61,010 nt of DNA, taken from positions 1 through 61,010 of IMG/VR virus record IMGVR_UViG_3300008255_000145, one strand, 5' to 3'. The translations under genes were made by a program, and so were the position numbers. Below are positions 5,331 through 60,967 of the stretch, piece by piece; position 1 is the first letter of the stretch, and each line of letters starts with the position of its first letter. The DNA comes from a virus (lineage: Duplodnaviria > Caudoviricetes). The notes beneath the pieces were generated by a model. The model made no database searches and had not been told where the DNA came from. It saw only the letters and a list, made by a program, of their open reading frames with translations.

Positions 5331-6264
5331 ATTTTGCTCCTATCCAAAATGCAACATATTTATCAAACGGTATTGTCATAGTATAATGATTTTCTGTTGT
5401 AATATCAATAAATTGCCATTCGCCATACATTTCTGCAGAGGTTGGATTTGGAGATATATCAAAATCTAGGTTATTCGGTCTTCTATATTTGGGATGATAA
5501 GGACTATCGCTAACATATATATATATAACATAGTATTTAAAATATTGTTGTATAGTTTCTGGATAAAGCTTAATTTGATTATTTTTTATATCATACCATG
5601 TACTAGAAAATTTATTAGCAGTAAAGTCTGAGGTTTGTTTTACTTTTGTAATATCTCCCCATGACAAATTTACCTTTGGACTTGTCAGTAATTGGCTATT
5701 TTTATAGCCATATTTATTAATATCATTAGTATCAGATGTCTCTTCAATTGTTACATTTTGCATATCTAATAAATTATTTCTAAGATGTAGTCCTAGAACA
5801 TCCATTTCTTGATATAATTTAACTTCATTATTAGCATATTCTGCTATCTCATTAGAATCACCAACAATTACAGCTACAAATGTGTAGGTATTAGGAGTTT
5901 TATCTAAACCTATTTTACCTTTATCTAAAACATAATTTTTAATGTGGTTATAATAAATTGTACTGTCTAACAAATATTCATCAGAAAGCTGTACATCTAC
6001 TGCATTAGTGTATTTATATGGAAGTGCATATATTTTAATCAATCTACCTACACCATGAAGTATATTAACATTATTAATAACGGCACGGAATGATACGGTT
6101 TCTATCTTATTCACTATATCAAGTGGTGTAATATAAAATGATGGAATGTTTGTAAGGAGTAGATTATCTCCGGCCGACCATACAGATGATTTTATGGCAA
6201 ATGGATCCTCTTTTGGTGGTACCTTTTTATCTAAAAGTATTTTACCATAATTTTTATTTGCCAT
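5323..6264 (-). CDS. Putative baseplate-associated virion protein (313 aa)
   Basis: Coupled ORF in the tail module. C-terminus YVIY..EWQFID..IPFDKYVAFWIG resembles the neighbouring gene. Confidence 0.55.
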   Translation of the reverse strand: MANKNYGKILLDKKVPPKEDPFAIKSSVWSAGDNLLLTNIPSFYITPLDIVNKIETVSFRAVINNVNILHGVGRLIKIYALPYKYTNAVDVQLSDEYLLDSTIYYNHIKNYVLDKGKIGLDKTPNTYTFVAVIVGDSNEIAEYANNEVKLYQEMDVLGLHLRNNLLDMQNVTIEETSDTNDINKYGYKNSQLLTSPKVNLSWGDITKVKQTSDFTANKFSSTWYDIKNNQIKLYPETIQQYFKYYVIYIYVSDSPYHPKYRRPNNLDFDISPNPTSAEMYGEWQFIDITTENHYTMTIPFDKYVAFWIGAKFD

Positions 6265-12153: not shown

Positions 12154-12210
12154 AGTATCCTATATAATTAATATATATTATAACATCAAACAGTGATGTA
12201 CCATAATCGA

Positions 12211-15200
12211 TTATACGTCAGCATCCTTCTGTTTGGCTATTCCTAAAATTGAATTTAACGTATTAGATGATATATATTTAATAACATCAACAGCTTCATA
12301 TACCATTTTAAGCTGGTCTGCTTCAAACTCTGCAAGTGTTCCCATTTTATAGGTATCAAGACCATACATATATGGAATGCCGTGCATTAATAATGGTCTT
12401 AAATATATAGAATCTGTGTATTTAGCCATATTAAAAGCAGTAGTTCTAAGACTTATTAGTAATGCGGTCGTTAATATAAATACACCAGCAAATGGTATTA
12501 GTGCACCTGTAGCCATGCTACCAAATATAAGACTAGATGCAATAGATATACCTGCGGCACCAGCCATTGCTTTTCTTGGAGAATTTAGAGCCTTGAGTAC
12601 ATTACTATTGTATTTATTACTCATTGCTTCTATTTGTTCTTTTGTAAGAGTACTATTTTCAATAACTTGATTTATTTCATATGACGAAGTAGCGATATCT
12701 TCAAAATCACTCATTGTCATACTCGCAGCGGTTGATACGTGCGACGACATAGATGGAACTATACTACTAATCATTCCAGAATACTGTGATATATTAATAA
12801 TATGATCTTTAACTTCTATATTACCACCCATACCTATTGAAGAATCTACTAGAAAGATTGAATCATAAGGTTTTATATCGGAATTTATTATAATGCCGAA
12901 TGTTCCTTTATATAACTTTTTGCTTTGCTTCCACAATTCTGCAGTACCATAATCATATGCACCACCAAACGAAATTTTCGTTAACTTACCATTAACAGTA
13001 ATTTCTGCCTCATGTCCAGTAACTTCAAGTGGGGCATTTGGCGCCAATAACACCTTAGTTCTGACTTCTTCAGCTTTAAGAAATTGATTTAATTTAAGGG
13101 ATACACTATCGCCACTATCTCCATAATTAACAACAACTCTAGTATAAACATCTTTATAGTCAGCTCTTATTCTATTATAGCATAGATTCTTATGCGATGA
13201 AACAAACCACTTTTTCTGAAACTTTCTAACAGTTCTATTCCTTAGATTGGTTAAAAGATCTAATCTATCATTACCTTCAAAATATGTAGCACCAGCAATT
13301 AATCTTTCTCTAAATGTAAATGCTCTATTATAATATAGCCCAGTTGGAGGTCCAAAATATAATGTTACCCTATCTTCATATGGCAATACTTTTGCAACAT
13401 AGCCAGGATATCTATATGTCATTTCATCTATGATTTCCCATGGAGTCTTCGCATTAACATCAAAGTCAGAAAATATTTGGTCAAACCAATCGTTAAATTT
13501 AAGAGGATGTTCTGCTAATTGGGAGGAAAGACGATCAAACTCTTCTGTAATTGGAGTAAATAGATTTTGATCTGCATTACTTCTAGTGTATACCCACAGT
13601 CTATCTGTTATTCTTCCATCTGCTCTAATTCTCTTAAAATCAGGAGCTAGACCATATTCACCAAAAACAAGACCACCAAGACCAAATCCAAATTTACTAT
13701 CTGTCATTTGTAAGTTGGAAGATGACATTAATTTCCATTTGCCAAAATGAACCATTTCAGGTTGTGCTAAGGCCCAGTTTAATATCTCCCAAGTACCTGG
13801 ATTAAAATCTGTAATATCACTATTTTTATTTGGATTTTTTACGTCATATATAGCTTCTACTCCAAATGACTGACATTGCATTTCATATTGCATTCCATCG
13901 CCTTCAACTGAAGCTATAAGTCCATTAAACTTAGTAGGTAGTTCTTGTACATCATTACCGTACCCAGCCTTAAACTGTACACGGGTTCCTGGTTTTAATA
14001 CGATTCCAGTAAGTCTATTTTCTGCAATTGTATTAAGTGTTTCAGTAGGCTTTTTTTCAGTTTTTGGTTTATCTCTATACTTAGCAGAAGTAAATTTCTT
14101 AGATACATCTATAAATTTTACCATCAACAAATCGGCAGGCTGATCGGCATGTTCTATAAAATCTATTTCTGCAACAGCGTTCAATCCAAACATTTCATTT
14201 AAATCATGTCGCATCCATGCAAACATTTCTTCATCATCGTCTTCAAGAATATAGACCTTAAATGCTGGAAATGCATTTAGTAGAGTAAGTCTGTCTCTCA
14301 CACCGTTATCTATTGCTATGTTGTACTGTCCGACAACTTCCGAATCCTTTCTCTTTGATTCTATTTCTAATTGCTCCGCTTCAGATAATTCTTGCTTTTC
14401 TCCAAATATAATTGCAGTGGTTATTGCCTTGTGATCCGAACTCGTAGTTTCAGTATATGTCTCGGTTGAATATGCACCTTTTGATATTAGTATATTATCA
14501 AAACTTGCCGTGTCTGCATTTTTACTGCTATAATAAGTATTTTCTACAACTGCTTGACTAAAGCCAGAATATTCACTAGCAACTACATTATTGAAGTCTC
14601 CAAGAACTATTATTAAGTCTGAATTAAAATTTAGTTGTATTTGATTTCTAATATCGGCCAACATAAAATTAGCATTACTAACATCTTGACCACTTGGAAA
14701 ATGCACCCCAACAATAGATATTTTTTTATTACTCTTTGTAGTTACTATTGCGTGTATTGCATCTCTATTACCATGATATTTAATTGGGTCTTCTATCTCT
14801 ATAGACTCAAATGAATCATTTTTGATAAACATAGATGTTCCCCATTTCTTAAACTCATTGGTAACATATTCTCCATATGATCCTTCTATTTTTATAATTT
14901 CAAATTTTCCATTATCAAGTTCGTCAATATTCATATTATATATTTCATTGAATACAACTATAGAGTTGTGTAATAACAATTCCTCAGCATATAATAAATC
15001 CTCAGGATTGGTACCAAATTTTACATTCCATGTTGCAATGCGTGCAATCATACTGTCTGAATCTGCCAACTGATCTATCTCTAGTTTGGTTGATGTATTA
15101 GTGTTATTGCCAGGAGTAGCAGAATTAATTGCGTCATCATCTTTTGCGGCCTTATTATCATCTAGGGCTATATTATATGCACTCTTACTATGTCTTAATA

Positions 15201-18200
15201 TTCCTTTCGTATTCTCTAGAATTTTTTTATTTCGTTTTTTTTGTATATCACGATATGCTGATGCATTTCCTATTCCCATATAGTTAGCGCCAGTTATCAG
15301 TGATTTAGATGTAGTTTGTTTTACTATATCTTGTTCTTTATTGGAATCTAGTGTTACTTCTTTATATTTATTTGCCTTATCGTTATTTTTACTATTCTTT
15401 ACCTTTTTAGTGGCTTCAATCTCTTTTTCATTTTGTTCTTTTTCTTTTGCACTAAACTCTGTTTGAATTACAACACTAGATAATATGTCGCTTAATCTTG
15501 TATCATCAAATTGTTCTTCGTATTTCTTTAATGCCTTATTATATTGCTCATTATTAAGAACCATATCATTATTGGTATTTTGTGTTTTAAAGTCATAATC
15601 ATGATATTTGCTTTCTTGATAAAAATAAAAATCAGGATTTAATGTTGGAGGCAAATAAAAGTCACTATATGCACTCTCGGTTATCTGATCTACAAAATCT
15701 AATGTAGTCAATCCTAGCTCATTGGGCTTTAACATAGCACCAAGGGACGGCCATGCTTTATATATCTTACCTAAATTAGCTTGGACACCCGACCATAATG
15801 CATCTCTGACATCAACTTTGATAACATCCTTACTTCTAAATACAGAAGATAAATCAATATCAACCTTTTTAACAGTACCAGTAAATTTACTTGTAACTAT
15901 TTTTGTTACACCATATTTATCAAAAAAACTATCCTTATCAGTTATATTTCCAACAGCACTTTCTAATCTTTTTAGCATATCGTCTATAACTGCTTTTCTT
16001 GTATTAGTTATATTTTGTGGGTAATTTATTACTGATATTTTATATTTAGCATTACCCTTGATCCCTTTAGTATATATTCCCGTTCCTACATTATTATATG
16101 ACACAAATCCTTCTATTTCATATGAAGCACTAAGTATTTCTAATTCTAGAGTAGTTCCAGTAAATATCTCATCTATGAATTTGTGAATAATATCACTATC
16201 GGTATATCTTTCTGTCATACTAAACATGTTACTAGTATAAAAATGAGTACGCATCTTAGTAATATTAGTTGCTTGTAATAACATAGCCTCACCGCCAGGA
16301 ATTTCAGGTATAGTTTCTATTCTACTTGAATCAACAGAGAAAAATACACCAGGAGCTATAGTATTAAGAAATGGGTCTTTAATAATAATACCATCCATTA
16401 ATGATAGATCTTTGTATTTAGAAAGATTATTATGTATTTTGTCTAATATTTGATTGAATTCTAAAATTGAAGATTTAGCTGATTCTAATTGTTCGTCAGC
16501 AGACACTATTTTAAGGGCAATAGTATCCTCGCGACCCCCTAGATACTGATGTGTAGCTAGTCTATGTCCCGCTAGTGGTACTCTAGGAATTGTAACATTT
16601 CCATTAACTTCATATGAATCTATAATAATATTTTTAACTACATGCTCATTATATGTTCGTAGATAGTATATTGCAGTGAATGCTATATCTGGAAATTCAA
16701 TATCATAACCCTTATTGGTTTCATCGCCATTGATTGGCGCATAGTCTACTTCTACAATTTCTTTTGATGACTTATTTAATAGTTCTTTTGGTATATCTAA
16801 TAAGAACAACTTTGCTTCATCAACTCTTCTTATTTTTAGTGCAGGAACAATATTGTGGTTAACATCTTTAAAATAGGATAGCATCTTATTAGCCGCACCT
16901 TGATAGTCGCCATCATTAATAAATGAAACAATACCATTAACATTAGATTCGCCCGCACCTCTATTATAGAAATGTGATATTAACGCATTAAACATATTCA
17001 TTGTTATTGGAGCTGATATACTGTTTTTAACTTGGTAGAATACCTCTTTCTGTATGTGAGTTAATACTTGAATTTCTGCTTCACCTCTTGTCATTGATAA
17101 TGTAGCTAATTGATATGCCTTATCAATATCTTCAGTTCTAAAAACTATTCCAGCAGCATTATTTTTGTCAGCTCTAATAGATGCCAATTCTTTAATGCTT
17201 AATAACTGTTTCCCTTTATTTAATACCTTTTGTACAGATGCCCGAGTTCCATGTCCAATAGAATAATGATCTACGTCTGGATAAGCAAATTCACTATATC
17301 CTTCCTTGTCGATAATAAATTTTAATATACTACCACTAAGTACAAACGGATTGGATGTACTTGGATTGCTTATATACCTTTTTACTGCTTCACTAATCTT
17401 TTCCGTTTGAAGATCTGTAGCTCTTTCTTTGAATTTATCAATCTTTTCATTTTCTGCTTTATAATATGTTTCATCATAAAATGCAACTTTTTGTACATCA
17501 CCTGCTTTTGGGTATCCTTTATTGGCTTCAATGGCCATAGCTTTTGCTGGGGACATTATGCCTTTTTTTTCAAACAAACCACTTAATCCATCTCTTTCTA
17601 TATCGTCATATGTAAATGATATTTCTTTAGGCTCATAAGTATAATATCCAAGAACAATACTATTGCTTGGTTTATTGTATATCTTATACCATTGAGATAT
17701 CGCATCATAAAGTTTATAATTTAATGCATGAAACTGATTGAATGCTTCAGACTTTTTAATGTCATATGTTAATCCTGGAGTTTTAAAATATCCACTATTG
17801 CCACGCTTAAATATAGTATTGTTACTAGATACATTCTCTTCACTTTTATAGTTAAATGTTTCATAGTTCTTAACATACTTTATTGAATCTGCATATGGTA
17901 GATAATTAAATAGTAATAGATTTAATGTAAGCCTAGTTGCTCTAGGGGTATTTTGATCCGGCATTATTGCATGACCATTATAGGTAAACATTAATTTATC
18001 CTTACTAAGAGATAGTGTATCATAGTTAATCTCTTTAAGTTTGGTTATTAAATGTTTTCTTAGGAATTCGTTCTCCATTTCAAAGAACGGCATATATGTT
18101 ATTTGAGTAAGAAGTGGCATCATTTTATTAATAATTTCATCTTCCATACTAGTTTGGAAATATGGATTGTCCGTAAATACCAAAGATAATTGTATTGCAA

Positions 18201-18522
18201 CTTCTGTATGGTTAGTATCTATTGATACAGTGTGTTGAGTTCTTAGATTGGGCATATTGATTTTACGTTCTGATATATTAATAGCTATGTTCTCAGGTGG
18301 TATTGTTAATAATATATCATTTATTCTAAGAAGGGAGTTGTCGCCCGATTCTCCATGCTTACGCATGATTTTATTGTCTGTTAATTCACTGTATGTTTTA
18401 TAGCTTTTATAGATGGTATTTGGAGTTTCATTTGGATCTAAATATCTATTTACACTATTTATCCAATAAGCCTCTAAGTCATACTTGTTAGTTAAACTTC
18501 CACCGTTTTGTACTTTATCCAT
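12211..18522 (-). CDS. Large baseplate hub / tail-associated lysin with GH24 lysozyme and EEP domains (~2100 aa)
   Basis: Likely start is the ATG at 18522 (TAATAATG coupling; the ORF track extends to 18543). Lysozyme motifs KEGYSEFAYPD..SIGHGT, FNALISHFYNRG, LKIRRVDEAKLF (~16800-17330). EEP motifs ATWNV, FNE, VHF, LGDFN, FDNI, SDH (~14400-15050). C-terminal hub-like region RVQFKAGYG..KFNGLI..CQSFG. Confidence 0.8.
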   Translation of the reverse strand: MDKVQNGGSLTNKYDLEAYWINSVNRYLDPNETPNTIYKSYKTYSELTDNKIMRKHGESGDNSLLRINDILLTIPPENIAINISERKINMPNLRTQHTVSIDTNHTEVAIQLSLVFTDNPYFQTSMEDEIINKMMPLLTQITYMPFFEMENEFLRKHLITKLKEINYDTLSLSKDKLMFTYNGHAIMPDQNTPRATRLTLNLLLFNYLPYADSIKYVKNYETFNYKSEENVSSNNTIFKRGNSGYFKTPGLTYDIKKSEAFNQFHALNYKLYDAISQWYKIYNKPSNSIVLGYYTYEPKEISFTYDDIERDGLSGLFEKKGIMSPAKAMAIEANKGYPKAGDVQKVAFYDETYYKAENEKIDKFKERATDLQTEKISEAVKRYISNPSTSNPFVLSGSILKFIIDKEGYSEFAYPDVDHYSIGHGTRASVQKVLNKGKQLLSIKELASIRADKNNAAGIVFRTEDIDKAYQLATLSMTRGEAEIQVLTHIQKEVFYQVKNSISAPITMNMFNALISHFYNRGAGESNVNGIVSFINDGDYQGAANKMLSYFKDVNHNIVPALKIRRVDEAKLFLLDIPKELLNKSSKEIVEVDYAPINGDETNKGYDIEFPDIAFTAIYYLRTYNEHVVKNIIIDSYEVNGNVTIPRVPLAGHRLATHQYLGGREDTIALKIVSADEQLESAKSSILEFNQILDKIHNNLSKYKDLSLMDGIIIKDPFLNTIAPGVFFSVDSSRIETIPEIPGGEAMLLQATNITKMRTHFYTSNMFSMTERYTDSDIIHKFIDEIFTGTTLELEILSASYEIEGFVSYNNVGTGIYTKGIKGNAKYKISVINYPQNITNTRKAVIDDMLKRLESAVGNITDKDSFFDKYGVTKIVTSKFTGTVKKVDIDLSSVFRSKDVIKVDVRDALWSGVQANLGKIYKAWPSLGAMLKPNELGLTTLDFVDQITESAYSDFYLPPTLNPDFYFYQESKYHDYDFKTQNTNNDMVLNNEQYNKALKKYEEQFDDTRLSDILSSVVIQTEFSAKEKEQNEKEIEATKKVKNSKNNDKANKYKEVTLDSNKEQDIVKQTTSKSLITGANYMGIGNASAYRDIQKKRNKKILENTKGILRHSKSAYNIALDDNKAAKDDDAINSATPGNNTNTSTKLEIDQLADSDSMIARIATWNVKFGTNPEDLLYAEELLLHNSIVVFNEIYNMNIDELDNGKFEIIKIEGSYGEYVTNEFKKWGTSMFIKNDSFESIEIEDPIKYHGNRDAIHAIVTTKSNKKISIVGVHFPSGQDVSNANFMLADIRNQIQLNFNSDLIIVLGDFNNVVASEYSGFSQAVVENTYYSSKNADTASFDNILISKGAYSTETYTETTSSDHKAITTAIIFGEKQELSEAEQLEIESKRKDSEVVGQYNIAIDNGVRDRLTLLNAFPAFKVYILEDDDEEMFAWMRHDLNEMFGLNAVAEIDFIEHADQPADLLMVKFIDVSKKFTSAKYRDKPKTEKKPTETLNTIAENRLTGIVLKPGTRVQFKAGYGNDVQELPTKFNGLIASVEGDGMQYEMQCQSFGVEAIYDVKNPNKNSDITDFNPGTWEILNWALAQPEMVHFGKWKLMSSSNLQMTDSKFGFGLGGLVFGEYGLAPDFKRIRADGRITDRLWVYTRSNADQNLFTPITEEFDRLSSQLAEHPLKFNDWFDQIFSDFDVNAKTPWEIIDEMTYRYPGYVAKVLPYEDRVTLYFGPPTGLYYNRAFTFRERLIAGATYFEGNDRLDLLTNLRNRTVRKFQKKWFVSSHKNLCYNRIRADYKDVYTRVVVNYGDSGDSVSLKLNQFLKAEEVRTKVLLAPNAPLEVTGHEAEITVNGKLTKISFGGAYDYGTAELWKQSKKLYKGTFGIIINSDIKPYDSIFLVDSSIGMGGNIEVKDHIINISQYSGMISSIVPSMSSHVSTAASMTMSDFEDIATSSYEINQVIENSTLTKEQIEAMSNKYNSNVLKALNSPRKAMAGAAGISIASSLIFGSMATGALIPFAGVFILTTALLISLRTTAFNMAKYTDSIYLRPLLMHGIPYMYGLDTYKMGTLAEFEADQLKMVYEAVDVIKYISSNTLNSILGIAKQKDADV

Positions 18523-18524
18523 TA

Positions 18525-21500
18525 TTAACCACCATAGTTCCAATTATTTTGTTTGTTATCGTCTTGCAATTCAGCTAAATACCTTGAATTGATTGAATTC
18601 GATTGATTGATTACATATTGAGATCCGCCACCTCCGACTGCACCTTGTACATCCCCTGCAGACATACCTGGACCTAATTCTCCAGTAAGGGCATATCTTG
18701 CACCACCAACTGCCTTACTAACTATTCCTGTTGGAGGATTAATACCATTCTCATATGTTCTTTTATTTTTTATTCTAGATTCTTCTCTAGCTTCTTGATT
18801 CTTTATATTATTGTCTGGACTTTGTAATAAAAATGCACCGGCTAATAATGCACTACCTGCAATAAGTAGTCCTTTGTTATCTTTTATCTTCTTAGTGATA
18901 TTCATTAAAGAATCACCTGAAGATATTGCAATCTCTCTCATTGCTCCTGTACTAGCTCTATTTCTTAATAATTGTTCGGCACCAGGTTCCATAATATTAT
19001 AGTCTTTTGGTAGGTTGCCAAGAAAGTTATGCAGCGTTGCCGCGCTATCTCTAGTAGTGGCTTTCTTTGTCATTAAATCTACAAGTATAGGATTCTCGGC
19101 ATAATACTTTCTACCGCCTTTAAGATAATTCTCTATTTCCATATCACTCATTTCTGCCATAATATCGTGACCCTCAAGATTTTTCATGGTAAGATGTTTC
19201 TTAAATAGATCTCTAGCTTCTTCTATATTATTTTTCTTAACATCAAATATATTATAAATTTCCTCTAACTGATCTTGTGCAATAGGACTCTTAGAACCAA
19301 TGGCTCTTTCAGGTAAAGTACTAACATAATGTTCCATAATAGCACTTTTAGTCGAAGCTTTAAAATGTTCTGAGTCTTGAAATACATCTCCTACATAAGG
19401 ATTAATAGATCTACTATATGGCATTGTCACATTATAAAATTCAGAAATACCCTGTTGAGACACGTTGGCTATTTGATTGGGCACAAGCCCTTTTGTCATA
19501 TTCTTAAATACATCACCACCTTTAAGACCCCCCTTATTTGATTCAGAAAAGAACTCTAATAATGGAGACTTATAATCTTTCCATTGCCTTGATGTAGCAA
19601 GTCTAGCCTCTTCTCTAGATATTGTAATAGCAGACCATGGATCTTTATCTTGATCTAGTAAACCTAAGAATTCCGTAATTTGATTAGCGGCCATCTTATC
19701 ATTCATTCCTGCTATCCATGTTCTATCATATTTATTAACGCCTGCTATTTTGTTTAGTTGGTCAGCCATATCTTCCATGTCTAACACTTTAGATACAGTA
19801 AATGATTCTGCGCCATAATAAGGAGCACGACCGCCTGCTTCAAATAGTCCCTTTTTAATTAACTTTTGTCTAGTTTGATTATTAAATTCAGACAATTGTT
19901 CTGAGGACAAATTGCTTATTCCAGTACTTTCTTTATAACTAGCAAGTTCTGTTTTATACATATCTGTATATGCTAATTTTTCATCTATAACAGCACTATT
20001 ATATCCAGTAAAGGATTTAGTTTTTAATTCCTCAATACTAACACCATATCTTTCTGCTAGCATACTTTGTACTTTGCCACCGTGTTTTTTATCAAGAGAT
20101 TCTAACATCTGTATATCAAATCCCTGAGGACCAACATATACTCTAGAAGAACTATTTGGATGTAAGTGATCTATTTTAAAGGCTGCTTGTTCTATAAGTC
20201 CAACAGCAAGATTTGCCCTCAATGCTTTATTGGCTAATATAGCTTCATGTTTTCCAGCTCTAAGGTTTTGTATAAAATCTTTATTAGCAGCATTATATTC
20301 GCCAAGAATATCTATAGAACCTTCAAGATCATATTGATTAGTTGCACTAGTATATTTACTATCAAATAAAGCTAATGGTATATTGCGATAATTATTACTT
20401 TGTCCACTACCAAGATCTATGTAAAATACAGTATCTTTTGCAACACTCTTATTTAATAATTTATTATCAAGACCTTGATTAGCCATATCAGTAGCACGTT
20501 TTCTGGCAGCGTCTACATCTCCACCAAAGAATATATTAATATCCTCGTCTACTAAGTTTTCTAATTTAAATCCATAAGATGGACCAGATATATTGTTTGC
20601 TATAACTGGTAATATCTGCTGAGTAACATTCTTAATAAAAGCAGTATTTGCTTCAGAGCCTATATTAAGTTCTTTAGCTGCGTCAATAAATCCAGCACTC
20701 ATTAATCTTCTTTTCTGTATATTATTAATAGATACTTGACCAATTCCTATGCCGTGATTTGCTTGAGTAGTATCTGCCGATATATATGATTCATATAAAT
20801 TTGCACCACCAAATATACTATCATTAATTGGCTTATTCATTCTTGCAAGAGGTTCATTTTTACGATGTGGCGGAGCCCCAGTAATAAGCAGTTCTAAATC
20901 CTTATCAAAACTATTATGGATTTTCATAATCTCTCTATACTGTCTATTATTTTGAGGGCCAGTAAGAATTTTAAACATTTGTTGTTCATTAATATTGTTG
21001 TTCATTCCATATATAGTTGCCGCAGCTGACATTTTAGTATTAACTATTCCAGCACCTTCAAGTTTGCCGAATGAACCCCAGAATTTGTTACTCTCAGCAA
21101 ATTTAAATATAGACTCTCCATGTATCCTAATGCCATCTTCTGTAGCTGTAATTCTTTTTATTATAGTATTAGAATTGATTTCACCTTTACTCATAGGATT
21201 GTAAGTTAAGGCTATCTTACCCTTTTTCCTTGTTAATCCAGACATTTGTATGCCTTTTAATGTCATGCCACCTGGTTTAGATACTCTGGCTGCAAAGTCT
21301 TTATATACTTGATCTCTGATACCTTCATTGCCTGCCTCACTCATCATGAGAGCTAATTTCCTAGCTGTTTTTCTTTTGCCTTTAACAGACATATATTTTC
21401 CACCACTAGATTGTAGCATGGCATCTGCTATCATTAGGTTGGCTTCATGAGTTAATGCAACTCCCTTACCTTTAAAGGATAGTTGTATATTTTTACTAGC

Positions 21501-53035: not shown

Positions 53036-53881
53036 CTTACTTCATCTTTATTATTAGTATAGTTAATAATACTTATTATATATAACTATATCAATTATTA
53101 TTAAATATGTATGGGATTAAGATGTCTAAGAATGATAATAATAGAGGATAAGATGTGGCGTTTTTGGTTTAAAAATAGATTATGTGATAGGGAAAGAAAG
53201 TCCTTCGCCTTTTGTGTATCAAAATGAGACACTTCTATATGAGAGTAAATATATTTTTTTTTAAAAAAATGAGAATAAACGAGAATTGAGAGGATTTAGA
53301 GGAGATGGTTAGTGCCCCTACCCATCTGACAGTAGCAAATAGGACGCTTCTTCGTGTAACATGGATGTTCTAAATAAAAACACTCTTGCCAGGGATGTGA
53401 GGTAGTGTCACTATAATTGGTAGATACCTTGGATAAAATTCATTGCGAGCCCCTACCGGTTTGCGATTTGGCCAATCTTTAGTATTTATTATTGTATCCA
53501 TTATAATGATAAGGTTATATACTTAATAACATCATCCTTGAGATAGTGTAGTATAACCATTCTATATTATATGTGTGTAGCAAGCACATAGAGTGAAGTA
53601 GCGTATCATTCGTATAGGTGTATTTATACATTGACATAATTAATGTATTGCGTTTGTATATTAACAAGAAAAACATAATATACAGTCACATGTGAGTCTA
53701 TATGTAGACCATGTGGTTACCATTAATATAGAAAACACATAGCACCTGTGTTACAGAAGGTAGCTTGAGGAAGTAATGTCGCCGAGAAGTGCATAAGCAG
53801 GCAGAGAAGGACATAATGATACATATTGTACATAGGGCAGACTAGTGAGATACAGCTAGTATGTTATGTATGATATAGACA

Positions 53882-53948
53882 GTCATACTACAACAAGTGG
53901 CGTGTGCATGGTTCCACATGCAGATGGTTCGAATCCATGAGTATGACC
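53882..53948 (+). ncRNA. Degenerate tRNA-like element (Gly-TCC-like, non-canonical)
   Basis: Acceptor GTCATAC/GTATGAC, T8-A9, D-loop AAGTGGC, stem GCATG/CATGC with a 6-nt loop GTTCCA, T-arm ATGG-TTCGAAT-CCAT; no encoded CCA. Confidence 0.6.
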
Positions 53949-54143
53949 TATATATTGGCTTAATTGACGAAAACAAGCGGTGCTAACTGACGTGTCAGCC
54001 GCAAAACAAATAATAATTAAAATTAGTCCTTGAGGCGTGCATCAAGTATTATAGCCGCTGGTTACTAGCATCGGGTACAACCGAATAGCGTAATTATACC
54101 AGTGGAGGGAAAAAGATATATGTCGATAGGACGAGGAGACAAT

Positions 54144-54352: not shown

Positions 54353-54378
54353 GGCCCCTCTTCGGAGGGGTCTTTATT
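54353..54378 (+). terminator. Intrinsic terminator with UUCG loop
   Basis: GGCCCCTC-TTCG-GAGGGGTC-TTTATT. Confidence 0.8.
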
Positions 54379-54380
54379 CA

Positions 54381-54440
54381 ACTCGTCTGAGCGAGTATAA
54401 ACAGATGATTAAGCTCAGAGCGTCCTTTTTAGGGGTCAAT
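54381..54440 (+). ncRNA. Pistol self-cleaving ribozyme
   Basis: P1 ACTCG/CGAGT; loop TCTGAG pairs with CTCAGA (6-bp pseudoknot); ATAAACAG linker; TTAAG; GCG; P3 TCCT/AGGG; GU cleavage dinucleotide at 54435-54436. P2 is weak. Confidence 0.82.
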
Positions 54441-55029: not shown

Positions 55030-55322
55030 TCACCAAGCTCGGTGGTTGTCCGAGCATAAATTGACAACAAATGCAGTGCTTCAAAGGAAGAGTTCGGTAC
55101 TGCTATTGGCGTATGCCTTTTACCCGAATAGGCTGAGCTCGTGTGTTGTAACACTTAATTTGCAAGGCAGCTTAACAAATCAATATACCATTAAAGTATA
55201 TGTTGTTGATGACTGAATAACTGCAAACCAATAGGCTGTTGTTACTGCGATAAGAGAAATTCGTATACACATGTGGCTGTGAGGCTGGCGTTTTGTGATG
55301 TCGTTTAAATAATCGCGATTTA

Positions 55323-55368
55323 CCACTACAGCGAGAAGGATATTCAGGTTTCGAGACCTGTGTAGTGG
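55323..55368 (+). ncRNA. tRNA minihelix-like element (acceptor plus T-arm only)
   Basis: CCACTACA/TGTAGTGG 8 bp stacked on CAGGT-TTCGAG-ACCTG. A 14-nt linker replaces the D and anticodon arms. Confidence 0.5.
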
Positions 55369-55397
55369 CTATTTATTAATTAGATAAAAGGGGATAA

Positions 55398-55781: not shown

Positions 55782-55833
55782 TTAAACCCATTTAATATGG
55801 GAATTTATTCTTTTATCTTCTTAAGGAGGAGAT

Positions 55834-55962
55834 ATGTTAGAAGATTTAATCGTAGAAAGTAATAACGAAGAGCTAAATATGGCTCTTCGTTGTGCTATAT
55901 CTGATATGGAGCTATCTATGTCTGATATAGAATTCGGTATTATGATGGATATTACCGAATAG
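55834..55962 (+). CDS. Small acidic protein (42 aa, MLEDLIVESNNEELNMALRCAISDMELSMSDIEFGIMMDITE)
   Basis: Strong RBS AAGGAGGAG; below the ORF-track length cutoff. Confidence 0.65.
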   Translation: MLEDLIVESNNEELNMALRCAISDMELSMSDIEFGIMMDITE

Positions 55963-56001
55963 TAACAGACTGGCACTCACTATAATGGTGAGTGTTAATG
56001 T
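55963..56001 (+). repeat. 39-nt near-copy of 59434-59472 (5' half of a twister; P4/L4 missing)
   Basis: TAACAGA(C/G)TGGCACTCACTAT(A/G)ATGGTGAGTGTTAATGT, 2 mismatches. Confidence 0.9.
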
Positions 56002-56113
56002 CTGAGAAAAAAGGAGAATCTACTAGCCTTTAAGTAGTAGAAAAAATAAATACTATACAAAGTGTCAAGATGTTCCTTTTAAGGTCAATCGGCTAAGTAT
56101 AGAAGGAGATATT

Positions 56114-56341
56114 ATGAAAATTAAATTATTTGCACGTTTTAATCGTATAGATGGCGTGCTTGATATTCGTCCAGAAGACGGGCAACTGATTTGGAGACGT
56201 GGCAATGGTGACATTGTTACTCTCAGGAAATCAGATGTTGCGGGATTATATTCATTTTTCCCAAAACCTTCAGATGCTAAAAAATTCATCGAAAAGAATT
56301 TCGATGATAACGGTATCTATTCCTGTGCCACAACGCATTGA
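56114..56341 (+). CDS. Early hypothetical protein (75 aa)
   Basis: RBS GAAGGAG. Confidence 0.7.
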   Translation: MKIKLFARFNRIDGVLDIRPEDGQLIWRRGNGDIVTLRKSDVAGLYSFFPKPSDAKKFIEKNFDDNGIYSCATTH

Positions 56342-56351
56342 GGGAGGAGAT

Positions 56352-56543
56352 ATGTTAAACAGTAAAATATACACTATTACTATCAACATAATCAAGACGA
56401 TTGTGTTGATAGTAATAAGCATAGCAGTACTCTATGCTATGGTGGTCCGTAGTATAGAACTATGGGAAACAGATCCAATCCCAGTACTTATAGTAGTGGC
56501 ATTGGCTGTAACGCTATTACTATCACTAGTGATAGTAGAGTGA
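56352..56543 (+). CDS. Small two-helix membrane protein (63 aa)
   Basis: RBS GGAGGAG before the ATG at 56352, in frame with track ORF 56199; two hydrophobic segments. Confidence 0.7.
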   Translation: MLNSKIYTITINIIKTIVLIVISIAVLYAMVVRSIELWETDPIPVLIVVALAVTLLLSLVIVE

Positions 56544-56608
56544 CAGATGGCACCCCAACGTCGTGAGATGCGGGGCAGTAATGTGCGGCGTCAGATCCAA
56601 AGTTCTGA
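56543..56608 (+). ncRNA. Twister self-cleaving ribozyme (permuted form, P1 closed by a hairpin)
   Basis: ACA-GATGG-[P1 CACCCC..GGGGCAG]-TAA-TGT-GC..P4 TCAGA/TCTGA with 8-nt loop TCCAAAGT. TGG pairs with CCA. Predicted cut between 56579 and 56580. P1 base is imperfect. Confidence 0.7.
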
Positions 56609-56732
56609 GCGGTAGTACGTATTTTAAGTTAATCAATAAATAGGGAATGTACCCTAGTAGCCGTAGTATATGGTGGCTATAAGAAAAAGTTCATATACAG
56701 TGATTGGTGTCTACTAAGTGACATAACAGAGC

Positions 56733-56763
56733 CTTATTGTCAAAATGACAATAGGATTTTTAT
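56733..56763 (+). terminator. Terminator-like hairpin just upstream of the polymerase gene
   Basis: CTTATTGTCA-AAA-TGACAATAGG then ATTTTTAT; the stem is AT-rich. Confidence 0.45.
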
Positions 56764-56790
56764 CAACCCATAAAATAATGGAGATTTATT

Positions 56791-59436
56791 ATGGGACAAA
56801 AAACATTTAACTTCTTGATGGATCAAGAAGCTAGCACTTTCATAAGTGCTAATTTGTTGTGGGTTCGATTAGGAGACAGAAGATTAGAAGTCTCCTTCGA
56901 ATCGGATAATGAGATAATAGTGCCAATAGAGGCACATATAGTCTCTTACAATAGAATTAGACCAATTCCAATTATGGGACAAAAGTCTCGTATATTGAAA
57001 TTGGTATCTATTCTGAAAGGTGCCGATGGCGATCCTTTCCAGTTGGCTAAATCGATAGCCGATTTTAATATGGCAGAACAGGAGATCCACTTCTTTGTTC
57101 CTGCCAAAAATGGCAGGAATTTAAAGTTTGTGGGACAAAAGACAATGTTCCGTCAATCTGGGTACCTAACCCAGAATGAAAAAGTCTGTCAAATAATGAT
57201 ACCCCAAGAGGGGGTGGTGGAAGCAATAAACAATGAGTCAGTAAGCTATGACTCATTAATGGAGTCTTTTAGACCTATGAGTATGGGCAAAAAAGACTGG
57301 CTTATTGGTATAAAGGTTATACCAATATTGTCTAATATGTACAATAAAGAATTCTTTTATCTTGGTGGAAGCCCAGATAAAGGACTATGTGTAGTTACAC
57401 ACAACAATAAAATCATTAAGAACACAAAGAGGAAATCCTCTCAGAAAATAGGTAAAATCCTATTGGCTGGGGGGATCCCATTTTCATTTGGGGAGCTCAG
57501 TTTTGTTGCAATTGAGTTCCCAAAAGCTATAGATGGTGTTTATGCCATCGTATCAGAAAAAGAGATGGAGATTGCAACAGCTGCCAACGCCTTGCATGGC
57601 AGACATTTACAGTCTCGCTCTTTGGGGTTTGGGTTAAAGGGCACTATTGCCACCCCAGAAACAAATATATTAAAAAATGTCTTGGGCAACTATAATGCCG
57701 TAATAGACATCAAAGAACTCAATTCTACGTATAACCTAAACTATAAGTTAGGTAATACTGTAGAATTAACAGACCTTATAATACTGTCTACAGATATGGA
57801 TAGTAATATAAGAGATTCCAAAGTGAATATGCAGGCACTAAGTCGTGCAGGCATATCTCAGACTAAATTATTATACCATTTTATAGATAATATTGATGAG
57901 AAAGATCCCCTCAAAATCATACCATCATTTGGTATTTCAAAAATGTTTAATTCTATTGGACATATAGTCCAGTGGGATGATACCCAAAATGGTTATCAAA
58001 AAATGGTAAGTTTGATTCAATCAAACTTAGAGTATTGGAAGTTAAATACTCTAAGAAAAGGAATCACTGTTCCTGGAGGGTATTTGTATAATCTCCCCTC
58101 CAATGTGCCGTTTGATGGCGCATTATTATCTAATGAGTTTATGATTAAGCATAATCTCACTATTGGTGATTATATTACAGTGCTGATAGCTCCAGCATTG
58201 TTTCCTGATAGAGAAGGTAAATCTCCATTCGTCTTCTCTAAAAGAATAGTTGGCAAATTGAAATCACGGTCCATATCGATCTCAATGAAGTCCAATGAAT
58301 ACGGACTGAGAGACTATGATGGTGACAAACTTGTAGTCCTGTCAGGCAGACATGCACTGGACCAAGGTGTATGTAATTTCGACTCTCTTAAAGTGGGGAC
58401 ACCAGCCGAACTTGAGTTACAATATGACTCGATATCGGCTGCTCAGGTCTTCTGTAACGCCAATAGTCTAGTTGGTGTCGCGGATGACACTGCGGGGTCT
58501 ATGTATTTATATGGACTTAATGACACTGAGTATTTAGGTGCATGCATCCAGGCGCCGGTATACTCCATGAAACATACAATTCGTAAGGGCTACGAATTGG
58601 AAGACTTATTGAAATATGGCAAGGAAGCTATACCAAAGGCATTTAATGGCAAAGGTAAGCTAATAAAGCATCCTGATCTGATATGTAGAAAGGAATCAGA
58701 TACTTTTAATGAAGCATTCAAAATGCAATCAAAAGTATCTAGCTACTTGGCAGACATCTTAGAACTGCTTAATGATGTCACGATTGATAAGTTTAATGTC
58801 ATTGAGTTTAAAGATATGATGTTATTATGTGACACATATCTAAATGAGGTTGAAGATGACGTCCTTGATGACTTAAAGGATTTAAGTAATCAAATATGGT
58901 CTATGGCATTCTCAAAATTGCCAGATGACGATAATGAAACCGACTTCAATATAGTTACGTCGGTTATTGGTGGTATAAGAGCAAGGATAACGCAAGAATT
59001 TGGTCCAGAATTCTTGCGTCAATTGGTCGCACTAATGATTGCAACCAATAAAACTGGAAAAATATACTATCCACTATTACTAGGACAAGATGTCCTACGA
59101 AAAGTAATAGATGGAAAGGTGGCGAAACATATCGACTATAGCGTTGGTATGGCGAATGAAGTTATAAACAATGGTGAATTAATCACTGTTGATATTTGGA
59201 GATCCAGAGTCAATAAGGACGATGTCAAAGAAGTTAGCTGTTCTACAGTTGAGTTTGAAGTTGATGATGTCGTATATGTAGTAGACGGCTTATTGAGACC
59301 CATTAATATGGTTCCCGCTAACATTAATGGTACACTCCAAGATGGAGAGTATAGGATTGTTGCCAGTAGGCCGAGATGGAACAAAACTGGGGAAGTTATA
59401 GGAACCGGGATAACCCTCACTCTTAGAAGAGTTTAA
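56791..59436 (+). CDS. YonO-like / cellular-RdRP-like single-subunit two-barrel RNA polymerase (881 aa)
   Basis: ID248GVYAIVSE, Q274SRSLGFGLK283G (cf. RdRP Q.R..G.KG), IAPALFP (cf. R.P.LHP) and catalytic RD508YDGD512KLVV, in the expected order; RBS GGAG. Confidence 0.82.
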   Translation: MGQKTFNFLMDQEASTFISANLLWVRLGDRRLEVSFESDNEIIVPIEAHIVSYNRIRPIPIMGQKSRILKLVSILKGADGDPFQLAKSIADFNMAEQEIHFFVPAKNGRNLKFVGQKTMFRQSGYLTQNEKVCQIMIPQEGVVEAINNESVSYDSLMESFRPMSMGKKDWLIGIKVIPILSNMYNKEFFYLGGSPDKGLCVVTHNNKIIKNTKRKSSQKIGKILLAGGIPFSFGELSFVAIEFPKAIDGVYAIVSEKEMEIATAANALHGRHLQSRSLGFGLKGTIATPETNILKNVLGNYNAVIDIKELNSTYNLNYKLGNTVELTDLIILSTDMDSNIRDSKVNMQALSRAGISQTKLLYHFIDNIDEKDPLKIIPSFGISKMFNSIGHIVQWDDTQNGYQKMVSLIQSNLEYWKLNTLRKGITVPGGYLYNLPSNVPFDGALLSNEFMIKHNLTIGDYITVLIAPALFPDREGKSPFVFSKRIVGKLKSRSISISMKSNEYGLRDYDGDKLVVLSGRHALDQGVCNFDSLKVGTPAELELQYDSISAAQVFCNANSLVGVADDTAGSMYLYGLNDTEYLGACIQAPVYSMKHTIRKGYELEDLLKYGKEAIPKAFNGKGKLIKHPDLICRKESDTFNEAFKMQSKVSSYLADILELLNDVTIDKFNVIEFKDMMLLCDTYLNEVEDDVLDDLKDLSNQIWSMAFSKLPDDDNETDFNIVTSVIGGIRARITQEFGPEFLRQLVALMIATNKTGKIYYPLLLGQDVLRKVIDGKVAKHIDYSVGMANEVINNGELITVDIWRSRVNKDDVKEVSCSTVEFEVDDVVYVVDGLLRPINMVPANINGTLQDGEYRIVASRPRWNKTGEVIGTGITLTLRRV

Positions 59437-59497
59437 CAGAGTGGCACTCACTATGATGGTGAGTGTTAATGTGCCGTCGCATGGTCACAAGTCCATG
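59436..59497 (+). ncRNA. Twister self-cleaving ribozyme abutting the polymerase stop codon
   Basis: ACA-GAGTG-[P1 GCACTCACTA/TGGTGAGTGT]-TAA-TGT-GC..P4 CATGG/CCATG with loop TCACAAGT. GTG pairs with CAC. Predicted cut between 59467 and 59468. Confidence 0.8.
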
Positions 59498-59533
59498 GTA
59501 GTAGTACATCCAATAATGTCTGAGGAGGATATT

Positions 59534-59887
59534 ATGTTATATGTATTATTAATTAGTTTTATTTGTTTTGCAATAGTTGTCATTTTAGTGGTCCACTATT
59601 GTCTCCCAAAGAGGGTGAGCATTTATACCTATAATGGAAAACTACACGCCTATAATACAGTGTGGTTTGATAATGGATATGGTGGAGGCTGCTACGATGA
59701 CAAAGTATATGCAAAGGGAAGAAATATTATTGAATTATATTTTAATGTTACGTTGTATAGACTGGTAAATAGAATGGGAGGGCATTTTTCAAGTGCCACT
59801 AAGATTTGGTGGTACGAGCATCTGTTAGATACAGAATGTAAGATGTTTGAGTTATTAGCAAATGTAATAAAAACATCTATAGATTGA
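59534..59887 (+). CDS. Hypothetical protein with N-terminal membrane anchor (117 aa)
   Basis: RBS GAGGAGG before the ATG at 59534. The track's longer version would run through the ribozyme. Confidence 0.7.
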   Translation: MLYVLLISFICFAIVVILVVHYCLPKRVSIYTYNGKLHAYNTVWFDNGYGGGCYDDKVYAKGRNIIELYFNVTLYRLVNRMGGHFSSATKIWWYEHLLDTECKMFELLANVIKTSID

Positions 59888-59979
59888 GACTCCGCTCCGC
59901 CCCCTCGCTCTGCTCGGCCCTACGGGTAAAGGGCTCCGCAAAGGATGATATGTATTGTATTTAATAAGTAATATGGATT

Positions 59980-60089
59980 GGCTGTTGATTGCTTAATTGC
60001 AATGCAGATATGTGATAAAATATCTGTACTAATTGGAAATGGTGAAGTGTCTCCACACGATTGCTTGGGTTCGAATCCCAGGACAGCCA
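59980..60089 (+). ncRNA. Enlarged tRNA-like element
   Basis: 7-bp acceptor GGCTGTT/GACAGCC plus A; 5-bp T-stem with TTCGAAT; D-stem TTGC/GCAA; 8-bp anticodon-like stem with 8-nt loop GTGATAAA; 37-nt extra arm; followed by a T-run. Confidence 0.65.
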
Positions 60090-60117
60090 CTCTTTTTTTT
60101 ATAATTATGGAGGTTAA

Positions 60118-60770: not shown

Positions 60771-60967
60771 TTTATCCAATTAAACAGATGATTGTAAAAA
60801 AAATAGCTACTAATACTAAGAATATTAGAGATAGTATAGTGTCTGAATTTAATATGAGAAAATCTGCCGCAAATGATGCTATACGCGTTGTTCGTAAGCA
60901 GTTAGGATTGTACCGGAAAAACTCCGGTAAACATTTAATAGCAAAAACAAAAAAGGAGTCAGCATGA
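60767..60967 (+). CDS. Small basic hypothetical protein (66 aa)
   Basis: RBS GAAGGAG; ATGA overlaps at both ends. Confidence 0.65.
   Translation: MIYPIKQMIVKKIATNTKNIRDSIVSEFNMRKSAANDAIRVVRKQLGLYRKNSGKHLIAKTKKESA

Follow-up and report, generated by a model that had tools for sequence, protein, structure and literature searches.

Twister, pistol and hammerhead ribozymes are found by the thousands in bacteria and phages, and their role is still open (PMC6765202 and PMC5408937; these and the other sources marked as excerpts below are cited from the part of their text that was available). It has been proposed earlier that hammerhead and twister ribozymes process polycistronic transcripts in bacteria (PMC6765202, excerpt), and clusters of ribozymes near phage genes are known (PMC4604425, PMC5408937, excerpts). 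In the phage clusters described by Weinberg et al. (2015), several ribozyme classes lie within a few kb of each other, at gene boundaries and on the coding strand (PMC4604425, PMC5408937, excerpts). We observed the same arrangement in the IMG/VR virus record IMGVR_UViG_3300008255_000145, a stretch of 61,010 bp of phage DNA that was analysed at its full length and is called the window in the following. In contrast to those clusters, two twister-type elements here delimit one identified gene of 2.6 kb, which encodes a predicted RNA polymerase, whereas related phages have a Pistol ribozyme in that neighbourhood. We refer to the element upstream of the polymerase gene as Tw1 and to the element downstream of it as Tw2. 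The reading that we favour, with moderate confidence, is that the ribozymes cut a polycistronic transcript into mRNAs whose ends are protected by hairpins.

The closest described class for both elements is the Type-P5 twister (RF02684; class by Roth et al. 2014, cited in PMC5408937, excerpt). Tw2 matched the full Rfam model of this class (model positions 1–58) above the threshold, with 41.8 bits compared to a gathering score of 37.6. An Rfam scan in gathering mode with default filters had not picked it up. Its P1 stem comprises 8 bp, P2 consists of 3 bp (ACA/UGU) and P4 of 5 bp (CAUGG/CCAUG). The T1 pseudoknot pairs GUG with CAC, and T2 pairs GC with GU including one wobble. We also found the conserved letters of the class, namely GA followed by GUG in L1, UAA after P1 and UCACAAGU in L4. 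The stop codon TAA of the polymerase gene (59434–59436) overlaps the first bases of the element. Judged by its Rfam match and its fold, the downstream element is a twister.

Tw1 shares with Tw2 the P5 permutation P2'-L1-P1 hairpin-U^AA-P2-T2-P4/L4, the pairing potential of T1 and T2 and the conserved letters in L1 and L4. The stems P2 (ACA/UGU) and P4 (UCAGA/UCUGA, 5 bp) are kept, T1 reads UGG/CCA and is in register, and T2 is again GC with GU. The core letters GA, UAA, GC and U...AAG are retained as well, and L4 reads UCCAAAGU. Compared to the Type-P5 consensus, both elements carry AAGU and not AAGC in L4, have a P2 of only 3 bp that is A-U-rich and start inside a stop codon, which in the case of Tw1 is the TGA (56541–56543) of a small hydrophobic open reading frame (ORF) of 63 aa. 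The clear difference from the class lies in the P1 of Tw1. Counted from the cleavage site it begins with a single C-G pair, continues through a 1x2 loop into four G-C pairs and ends, after a 2x1 loop, with a 4-bp stem capped by a GUGA loop; the Rfam alignment flags 4 non-pairs. Because this stem is long and interrupted, the score of Tw1 stays far below the Rfam threshold. In vitro, P1 is reported to be dispensable for cleavage although it is conserved in twisters, and disruption of the pseudoknots lowers the activity (PMC5408937, excerpt). As judged from the retained core and pairings, Tw1 is a real twister-derived element; its Rfam membership and its activity are putative.

For a chance test we used a descriptor that consists of a 3-bp P2, GA, a 3-nt T1, the P1 hairpin, UAA, P2', GC, a linker, a P4 of at least 4 bp and a loop of the form U-T1'-AAG-Y. 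The descriptor was drawn from consensus features, but after both elements had been seen, and is therefore supportive and not blind. In the window it matched at 56543 and 59436 only, both on the plus strand, with 0 matches on the minus strand, and it had 0 matches in 300 dinucleotide-preserving shuffles, which amount to 36.6 Mb with both strands searched. When T1 and P1 were no longer required, we obtained 5 matches in the same 36.6 Mb of shuffles. Across all loci of the comparison (745 kb on both strands, some of them overlapping) the relaxed descriptor returned the two elements of the window and one site in L020, an AT-rich match that was judged spurious.

The pseudoknot triplets give a second line of evidence. 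In both elements the L1/L4 triplets sit where the Rfam consensus has GgG and CcC. The T1 of Tw1 differs from this consensus by a double change, U in L1 together with A in L4, and keeps three Watson-Crick pairs. For Tw2 we observed a different double change, with U and A at the middle pair. These compensated T1 changes are the strongest internal evidence that both folds were under selection, as far as selection can be read from sequence. An earlier reading of this DNA, made from its letters and ORFs alone (the sequence-only reading), had claimed two twister ribozymes that start at the stop codons of the upstream gene and of the polymerase gene, with L1-L4 pseudoknots that covary and P4 stems that differ in sequence but both pair. 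The overlaps with the two stop codons, the covariation in register with the Rfam consensus and the pairing of both P4 stems were all recovered. The class assignment itself held for Tw2, which lies above the Rfam gathering score, and only in part for Tw1, which is sub-threshold in the Rfam search.

The gene between the two elements encodes a protein of 881 aa. Searches with this protein gave no significant Pfam match (one sub-threshold row with an E-value of 0.077) and no PHROG match, and a single-sequence search gave no PDB match. In an exhaustive HMMER search of 1.84 billion proteins we found only 20 cluster representatives. The catalytic motif DxDGD corresponds to D508-Y-D510-G511-D512, and D508, D510, G511 and D512 are invariant in 18 of the 18 aligned relatives. 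The profile of these 18 relatives reached the DFDGD segment of the P23-45 gp96 RNA polymerase chains with an E-value of 9e-5. The AF2 model of the protein has a pLDDT of 82 and a pTM of 0.73. When this model was compared to the PDB with Foldseek, 28 matches were obtained at E <= 0.001, and ranks 1–28 are QDE-1, RDR2 and phage two-barrel RNA polymerases. The best match is QDE-1 (7y7q_A, E-value 2.1e-13, TM 0.43), and the phage matches comprise P74 gp62 (7e-10), P32 gp64, P23-45 gp96 and the virion polymerase of the crAss-like phage phi14:2. On the basis of the motif, the profile and the structure model, the 881-aa protein is a two-barrel polymerase of the QDE-1/YonO lineage and resembles RNA-dependent RNA polymerases (RdRPs), in agreement with the RdRP-like identity that had been suggested before.

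YonO, the characterised phage member of this lineage, depends on DNA as its template and transcribes late genes (PMC5467207), and QDE-1 has both DNA- and RNA-templated activity (PMC9508822, excerpt). Since the phage relative YonO is DNA-dependent, the 881-aa protein is by analogy most likely the phage's own DNA-dependent RNA polymerase. It belongs to a small, unannotated family within the lineage. A word-index search for relatives returned the protein itself only, GenBank phages contained none by blastn and none by tblastn in 50,697 records, and none were found in metagenome_contigs (two scans) or in genome_contigs. In viral_contigs the only relative was that of G001, a phage contig that is described below.

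The processing that we favour would proceed as follows. The ribozymes would cut the polycistronic transcript during its synthesis and, owing to the Type-P5 permutation, the cut would fall between the closed P1 hairpin and P2. The upstream mRNA would end with its stop codon, 8 nt, the P1 hairpin and a U that carries a 2',3'-cyclic phosphate, with a 3' untranslated region of 31–36 nt. The downstream mRNA would begin with a 5'-OH, ~10 nt and the P4 hairpin. With predicted UAA steps at 56579/56580 and 59467/59468, which match the scissile positions and the product of 2888 nt given by the sequence-only reading, the polymerase mRNA would span 56580–59467 and would have a hairpin and non-canonical chemistry at both ends. 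RNA can be protected by 5'-OH ends. Such ends would uncouple the stability and the translation of the polymerase mRNA from those of its neighbours, whichever polymerase or terminator made the RNA. We infer that Tw1 cleaves, that the genes are transcribed together and that the ends stabilise the mRNA, and double cleavage in particular is a prediction because Tw1 lies below the Rfam threshold. Ribozyme-defined control of the polymerase mRNA, which had also been put forward before, is the most economical reading of the locus. The coordinates of the features are collected in Table 1.

Table 1. Features of the polymerase operon, with window coordinates, strand and the basis of each assignment.
Feature	Coordinates	Strand	Basis
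8-bp G+C-rich hairpin followed by UUUAUU, terminator-like	54353..54378	+	Terminator scan (core 54357-54370), extended by reading
Pistol ribozyme (RF02679)	54381..54436	+	53.4 bits compared to a gathering score of 34.5
Twister 5'-half, probable relic or plain hairpin	55963..56004	+	37/39 nt identical (95%) to the Tw2 5' half (repeat family D1)
Small hydrophobic ORF, 63 aa from an ATG behind GGAGGAG	56353..56543	+	ORF list (frame 56199..56543)
Tw1, twister-like element, Type-P5 layout, sub-threshold in Rfam	56542..56608	+	Rfam alignment, descriptor match, reading
Predicted Tw1 scissile step U56579^A56580	56579..56580	+	Inferred from UAA beside P1; site definition from PMC5408937 (excerpt)
10-bp hairpin followed by AUUUUUAU, terminator-like	56733..56755	+	-10.4 kcal/mol, z = -3.5, 0/200 shuffles fold as well
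Predicted two-barrel (QDE-1/YonO-like) single-subunit RNA polymerase gene, 881 aa	56791..59436	+	ORF list, profile, fold match
Tw2, Type-P5 twister ribozyme	59435..59497	+	Rfam Twister-P5 RF02684 match, z = -2.3 fold, descriptor match
Predicted Tw2 scissile step U59467^A59468	59467..59468	+	Inferred from Rfam alignment; site definition from PMC5408937 (excerpt)
Downstream ORF, 117 aa, hydrophobic N-terminus	59534..59887	+	ORF list

The bracket is not special to the polymerase gene, as the same operon contains a Pistol ribozyme and a further twister half. The last stem of the Rfam Pistol model is unmatched at the Pistol site, which lies 27 nt upstream of the start of a 188-aa ORF and is adjoined on its upstream side by a terminator-like hairpin. 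The twister half is a 39-nt copy (55963–56001) of the 5' half of Tw2, placed at the stop codons of a 42-aa ORF, 3.5 kb from Tw2 and 580 nt upstream of Tw1. It lacks the T2/P4/L4 half and folds into one long hairpin in which ACAGAC pairs with GUCUG (-27.3 kcal/mol, z = -4.9). A 1.27-kb Rfam search gave no twister match at E <= 10 for this site and the descriptor misses it too. We take it for a probable relic without activity or for a plain hairpin. The Pistol, Tw1 and Tw2 are all intergenic and on the coding strand, and Tw1, Tw2 and the relic each begin in a stop codon. As far as these elements indicate, the polymerase gene is one of several units in a ribozyme-punctuated operon. The next unit, the 117-aa ORF downstream of Tw2, has the Shine-Dalgarno (SD) sequence GAGGAGG 25 nt past the end of Tw2 and no PHROG match.

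Several smaller features were noted in the same operon. Between 56708 and 56731 we observed a P4/L4-like hairpin, UGUC-UACUAAGU-GACA (56708–56723), followed by UAACAGAG and the hairpin at 56733. The first hairpin and UAACAGAG might be debris of further twister copies. As a permuted twister, the combination of this hairpin, UAACAGAG and the 56733 hairpin was rejected, as it lacks a UAA-UGU-GC half and its T1 does not pair. The 7-mer TRACAGA is common with 34 copies. The sequence GGTAGTAGTAC after the twisters was rejected as a shared motif since it is not enriched (18 matches compared to 11.9 expected). A hairpin of 11 bp followed by one of 8 bp occurs at 56808–56851, which is 17–60 nt inside the polymerase ORF. 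The region from 53 to 61 kb contains 21 terminator-like sites, 15 of them on the minus strand, compared to an expectation of 3.8 derived from shuffles. Three small genes nearly share the ribosome-binding and start context GGAGGAGATATGTTA (55825–55839, 56343–56357 and ~59522–59538; family D18), and two of the three end in a twister-type element.

We then compared the locus with those of related phages. G001 is an IMG/VR contig of 176.7 kb, estimated to be 79% complete. Its structural block is collinear with that of the window, and its divergent block encodes a polymerase homologue with 26–28% identity. It has two Pistols, the only ones in 176.7 kb, which are located 386 nt upstream and 3.4 kb downstream of the polymerase gene with other genes in between. 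No Twister-P5 was found in G001, and there are no tRNA genes in the 60 kb of it that were scanned. The second relative, G003, shares the major head protein (53% identity) and encodes a protein of 876 aa with an RDxDGD motif in the same position as in the window polymerase. The hhalign comparison of this protein with the polymerase family gave a probability of 81% and an E-value of 1.2e-5, with the KGT and RDxDGD motifs aligned. A Pistol is located 2.8 kb downstream of this remote homologue. A profile search of 5 records related by the major capsid protein returned no polymerase; as it missed the G003 homologue, the other 4 negatives are weak.

Twister-P5 did not appear above the cut-off in any of the 6 records of relatives. 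Two sub-threshold matches reached 15 and 11.6 bits, and at that E-value 7 of 14 control genomes also match. Hammerhead_II, Hatchet and Twister-sister each gave 0 matches in 5 records, in searches where no positive control matched either. Ribozymes were found near the polymerase gene in 3/3 related phages in which the gene was found, and their class and exact position vary. Of the shared flanking in related phages that the sequence-only reading had proposed to look for, ribozymes near the polymerase gene were found in G001 and G003, and the bracketing was not conserved.

Two further observations concern the surroundings of these genes. In three phages a terminator-like hairpin with a U-run is located upstream of the Pistol (hairpin at ~5442–5475 and Pistol at 5478–5539 in L001; hairpin at ~12205–12255 and Pistol at 12320–12381 in L030). 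Hairpin and Pistol adjoin each other in the window and in G001, and in G003 they are ~60 nt apart. This succession of terminator and ribozyme looks like a conserved module; through it, transcripts that read past the terminator might acquire a 3' end identical to that of terminated transcripts. In G003 the near-palindrome CAATTTAAATTG/CAATTTAAGTTG occurs three times upstream of the polymerase-like gene (L030 6232–6250 and 6818–6862), and these copies may be operator or promoter sites.

A number of observations weigh against the processing of the polymerase mRNA at both ends. With 9.7 bits and an E-value of 7 in a 106-nt search, Tw1 is 28 bits short of the gathering score of 37.6, and a 3.3-kb Rfam search at E <= 10 did not report it. 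Its P1 is interrupted directly at the cleavage site. The terminator-like hairpin at 56733–56755 falls between Tw1 and the start codon of the polymerase gene; it could end upstream transcripts, and the polymerase gene might have its own promoter. The twister copies in the operon appear both to duplicate and to decay. None of the 23 runs listed for the locus is recorded as RNA. We also compared the window with contigs from 4 DNA runs for natural variation. Over the two elements these contigs show an identity of at least 99%, and every piece that includes the ribozymes agrees fully with the window, which left no covariation to be read; the contigs differ from the window only at 57272, 57885 and 58333 and by a 1-nt deletion at 60796. 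In the related phages, the polymerase gene of G001 is followed by a hairpin and not by a ribozyme, and no ribozyme was found upstream of the homologue in G003 with five families tried. The bracketing of the polymerase gene is not conserved, and the window alone has it.

The low score of Tw1, its broken P1 beside the scissile step, the terminator-like hairpin with its U-run and the clearly non-functional twister half upstream would also fit a locus in which only Tw2 and the Pistol are active. Tw1 would then be decaying and inactive, and the 5' end of the mRNA would come from a promoter or from processing near the 56733 hairpin, which we consider possible but rather doubtful. We are equally hesitant about the corresponding role of Tw2, which would merely set the polymerase mRNA apart from the membrane-protein gene that follows and add a 3' hairpin. 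Decay is difficult to reconcile with an element that keeps all readable consensus core nucleotides and in which the double change in T1 restores three Watson-Crick pairs, something that is unexpected in a decaying element. Moreover, the stem that is broken is the one that is reported to be dispensable in vitro (PMC5408937, excerpt), and the descriptor has no chance matches in the shuffles.

The duplication of a twister half at 95% identity over a distance of 3.5 kb raises another possibility, namely that the ribozymes are selfish or neutral passengers, duplicating or recombining modules that land at gene ends and have no role in polymerase expression. The differences in ribozyme class and position among the related phages point in the same direction, and most genomic ribozymes are functional orphans (PMC6765202, excerpt). 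We nevertheless regard such passengers as improbable here. All elements are intergenic, on the coding strand and phased to stop codons, and the compensated double change in the T1 of Tw1 indicates that the fold has been selected. Ribozymes also recur near the polymerase gene in every related phage with the gene found, and both Pistols of G001 lie within 3.4 kb of it. We retain processing of the transcript as the favoured reading.

At the far end of what the predicted ends would permit is a circular RNA, a natural 'Tornado'. RtcB, from the host or from the missing part of the phage genome, would join the ends of the 2888-nt mRNA into a circular, exonuclease-resistant and translatable mRNA, which we think very unlikely. 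The same low credence applies to the circle junction as a hybrid twister with a mismatched T1, so that no re-cleavage would follow; the mismatch as such was confirmed, as GUG against CCA gives one pair of three. The chemistry of the ends fits RtcB (PMC8782182, excerpt), and an engineered mRNA between two ribozymes has been circularised by the native RtcB of E. coli and translated (PMC12628768). In the phage locus the T1 triplets of Tw1 and Tw2 are mutually non-complementary, and the excised RNA would retain its own SD and the complete ORF.

A ligase gene elsewhere in the genome, which the sequence-only reading had asked for, was not found in the 61-kb contig, for which CheckV estimates a completeness of 31%. 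The syntenic, jumbo-size relative G001 does encode an RtcB ligase of 374 aa (213.9 and 218.3 bits; L020 10609–11733, G001 160614–161621), but this owner of RtcB does not bracket its polymerase gene. In G001 the ligase gene is close to genes for an RNase H-like protein and a radical-SAM protein (regions L020 10609–11733 and 12748–13158). The presence of RtcB in phages is usually explained as tRNA repair, which counts against a role in circle formation. No junction was observed, and the runs listed for the locus include no RNA run in which it could have appeared. With T1 mismatched, the 3-bp P2 would be the sole pairing between the ends, whereas engineered systems add a ligation stem, and the activity of Tw1 that a circle requires is predicted only. 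An RNA that replicates itself is disfavoured and less likely still than the circle, because the dead hybrid ribozyme could not resolve rolling-circle multimers. The absence of any ribozyme found by Rfam on the opposite strand of the window also counts against such a replicon.

The window is the entire record for the phage genome and is classed as a linear virus record. The source is an uncultivated, myovirus-like groundwater phage and probably a jumbo phage. Near-identical DNA was found in 22 runs from aquifer, groundwater and hot-spring samples. PHROG scans of the minus strand from 1 to 53035 detected the terminase large subunit, portal, major head protein, tail sheath and baseplate wedge, as well as a PhoH-like protein and a DNA-polymerase exonuclease-like domain. 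According to the ORF lists, the plus-strand block with the polymerase gene diverges from the structural genes at ~54100, where the GC skew flips.

An ORF of 2110 aa (12211–18543) has endolysin-type PHROG matches in two regions. Its neighbours of 1403 aa and 1175 aa are without a family match, and the three may represent an ejected or virion-associated giant protein. Between the divergent blocks ~1 kb (53036–54100) is without a convincing ORF and includes, at ~53883–53950, a compact element that looks tRNA-like by eye, with an 8-bp acceptor-like stem and a GGTTCGAATCC T-arm; it was not recognised by ARAGORN (default settings) or Rfam. A second intergenic stretch of 370 nt (55030–55397) has a G+C content above average, no ORF of at least 60 aa and no match to an Rfam family at E <= 10. 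An unknown RNA or a structured leader could lie here. In the region 59888–60100, a G+C-rich stretch follows the stop codon at 59887. Behind this stretch comes a tRNA-like element of ~109 nt (~59980–60088) with a 7-bp acceptor stem, a GGGTTCGAATCCC T-arm, a long insertion and a run of 8 T at its end, which neither ARAGORN (default settings) nor Rfam calls.

Several described systems resemble parts of this locus. RiboJ-type insulators have a self-cleaving ribozyme and then a hairpin in front of the ribosome-binding site, which standardises the 5' end of an mRNA. The likeness lies in Tw2, which is predicted to leave a 5'-OH and the P4 hairpin at a short distance upstream of the next SD. RiboJ is a designed part based on a hammerhead, however, and the analogy is functional only. 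In the synthetic Tornado system in E. coli (PMC12628768), as in the phage locus, a coding RNA with its own ribosome-binding site is located between two self-cleaving ribozymes whose products are substrates of RtcB. Tornado was engineered with designed ligation stems, whereas the predicted phage ends share the 3-bp P2 only. If the circle were true, it would be the counterpart of Tornado in nature and the first natural case of a bacteriophage mRNA made circular by small ribozymes.

Ribozyme pairs that delimit a unit-length RNA with ends suited to RNA ligases are also found in the circular RNAs of viroid-like agents, ambiviruses and retrozymes (PMC7761336, 10.1101/2022.07.19.500677, PMC13725137; excerpts). 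Each of these is an RNA replicon or a retroelement and regenerates its ribozyme in every unit. In the phage, by contrast with the viroid-like RNAs, the template is DNA and the ligated junction would be a non-functional hybrid. The polymerase shares its predicted two-barrel fold and the DxDGD motif with YonO of the B. subtilis prophage SPbeta, P23-45 gp96, P74 gp62, crAss phi14:2 gp66, QDE-1 and RDR2. Like YonO (PMC5467207) it is a phage-encoded single chain of ~100 kDa, but in contrast to these polymerases it has no significant single-sequence match to any solved chain. As a member of a small, unannotated branch of the QDE-1/YonO lineage, the family bears on the evolution of RNA polymerases.

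In the literature we found no account of twisters that bracket the polymerase gene of a phage, a point on which the supplementary gene lists of the ribozyme-discovery papers may bear. The locus offers a compact case for ribozymes as polymerase-independent definers of mRNA ends and for RtcB-dependent circularisation. The relatives add to this case, as they have a different ribozyme class beside the homologous gene and one of them also has the ligase that joins exactly such ends. Compared to the described systems as a whole, the arrangement is a clean instance of a known, unexplained habit of phages and not a new kind of system.

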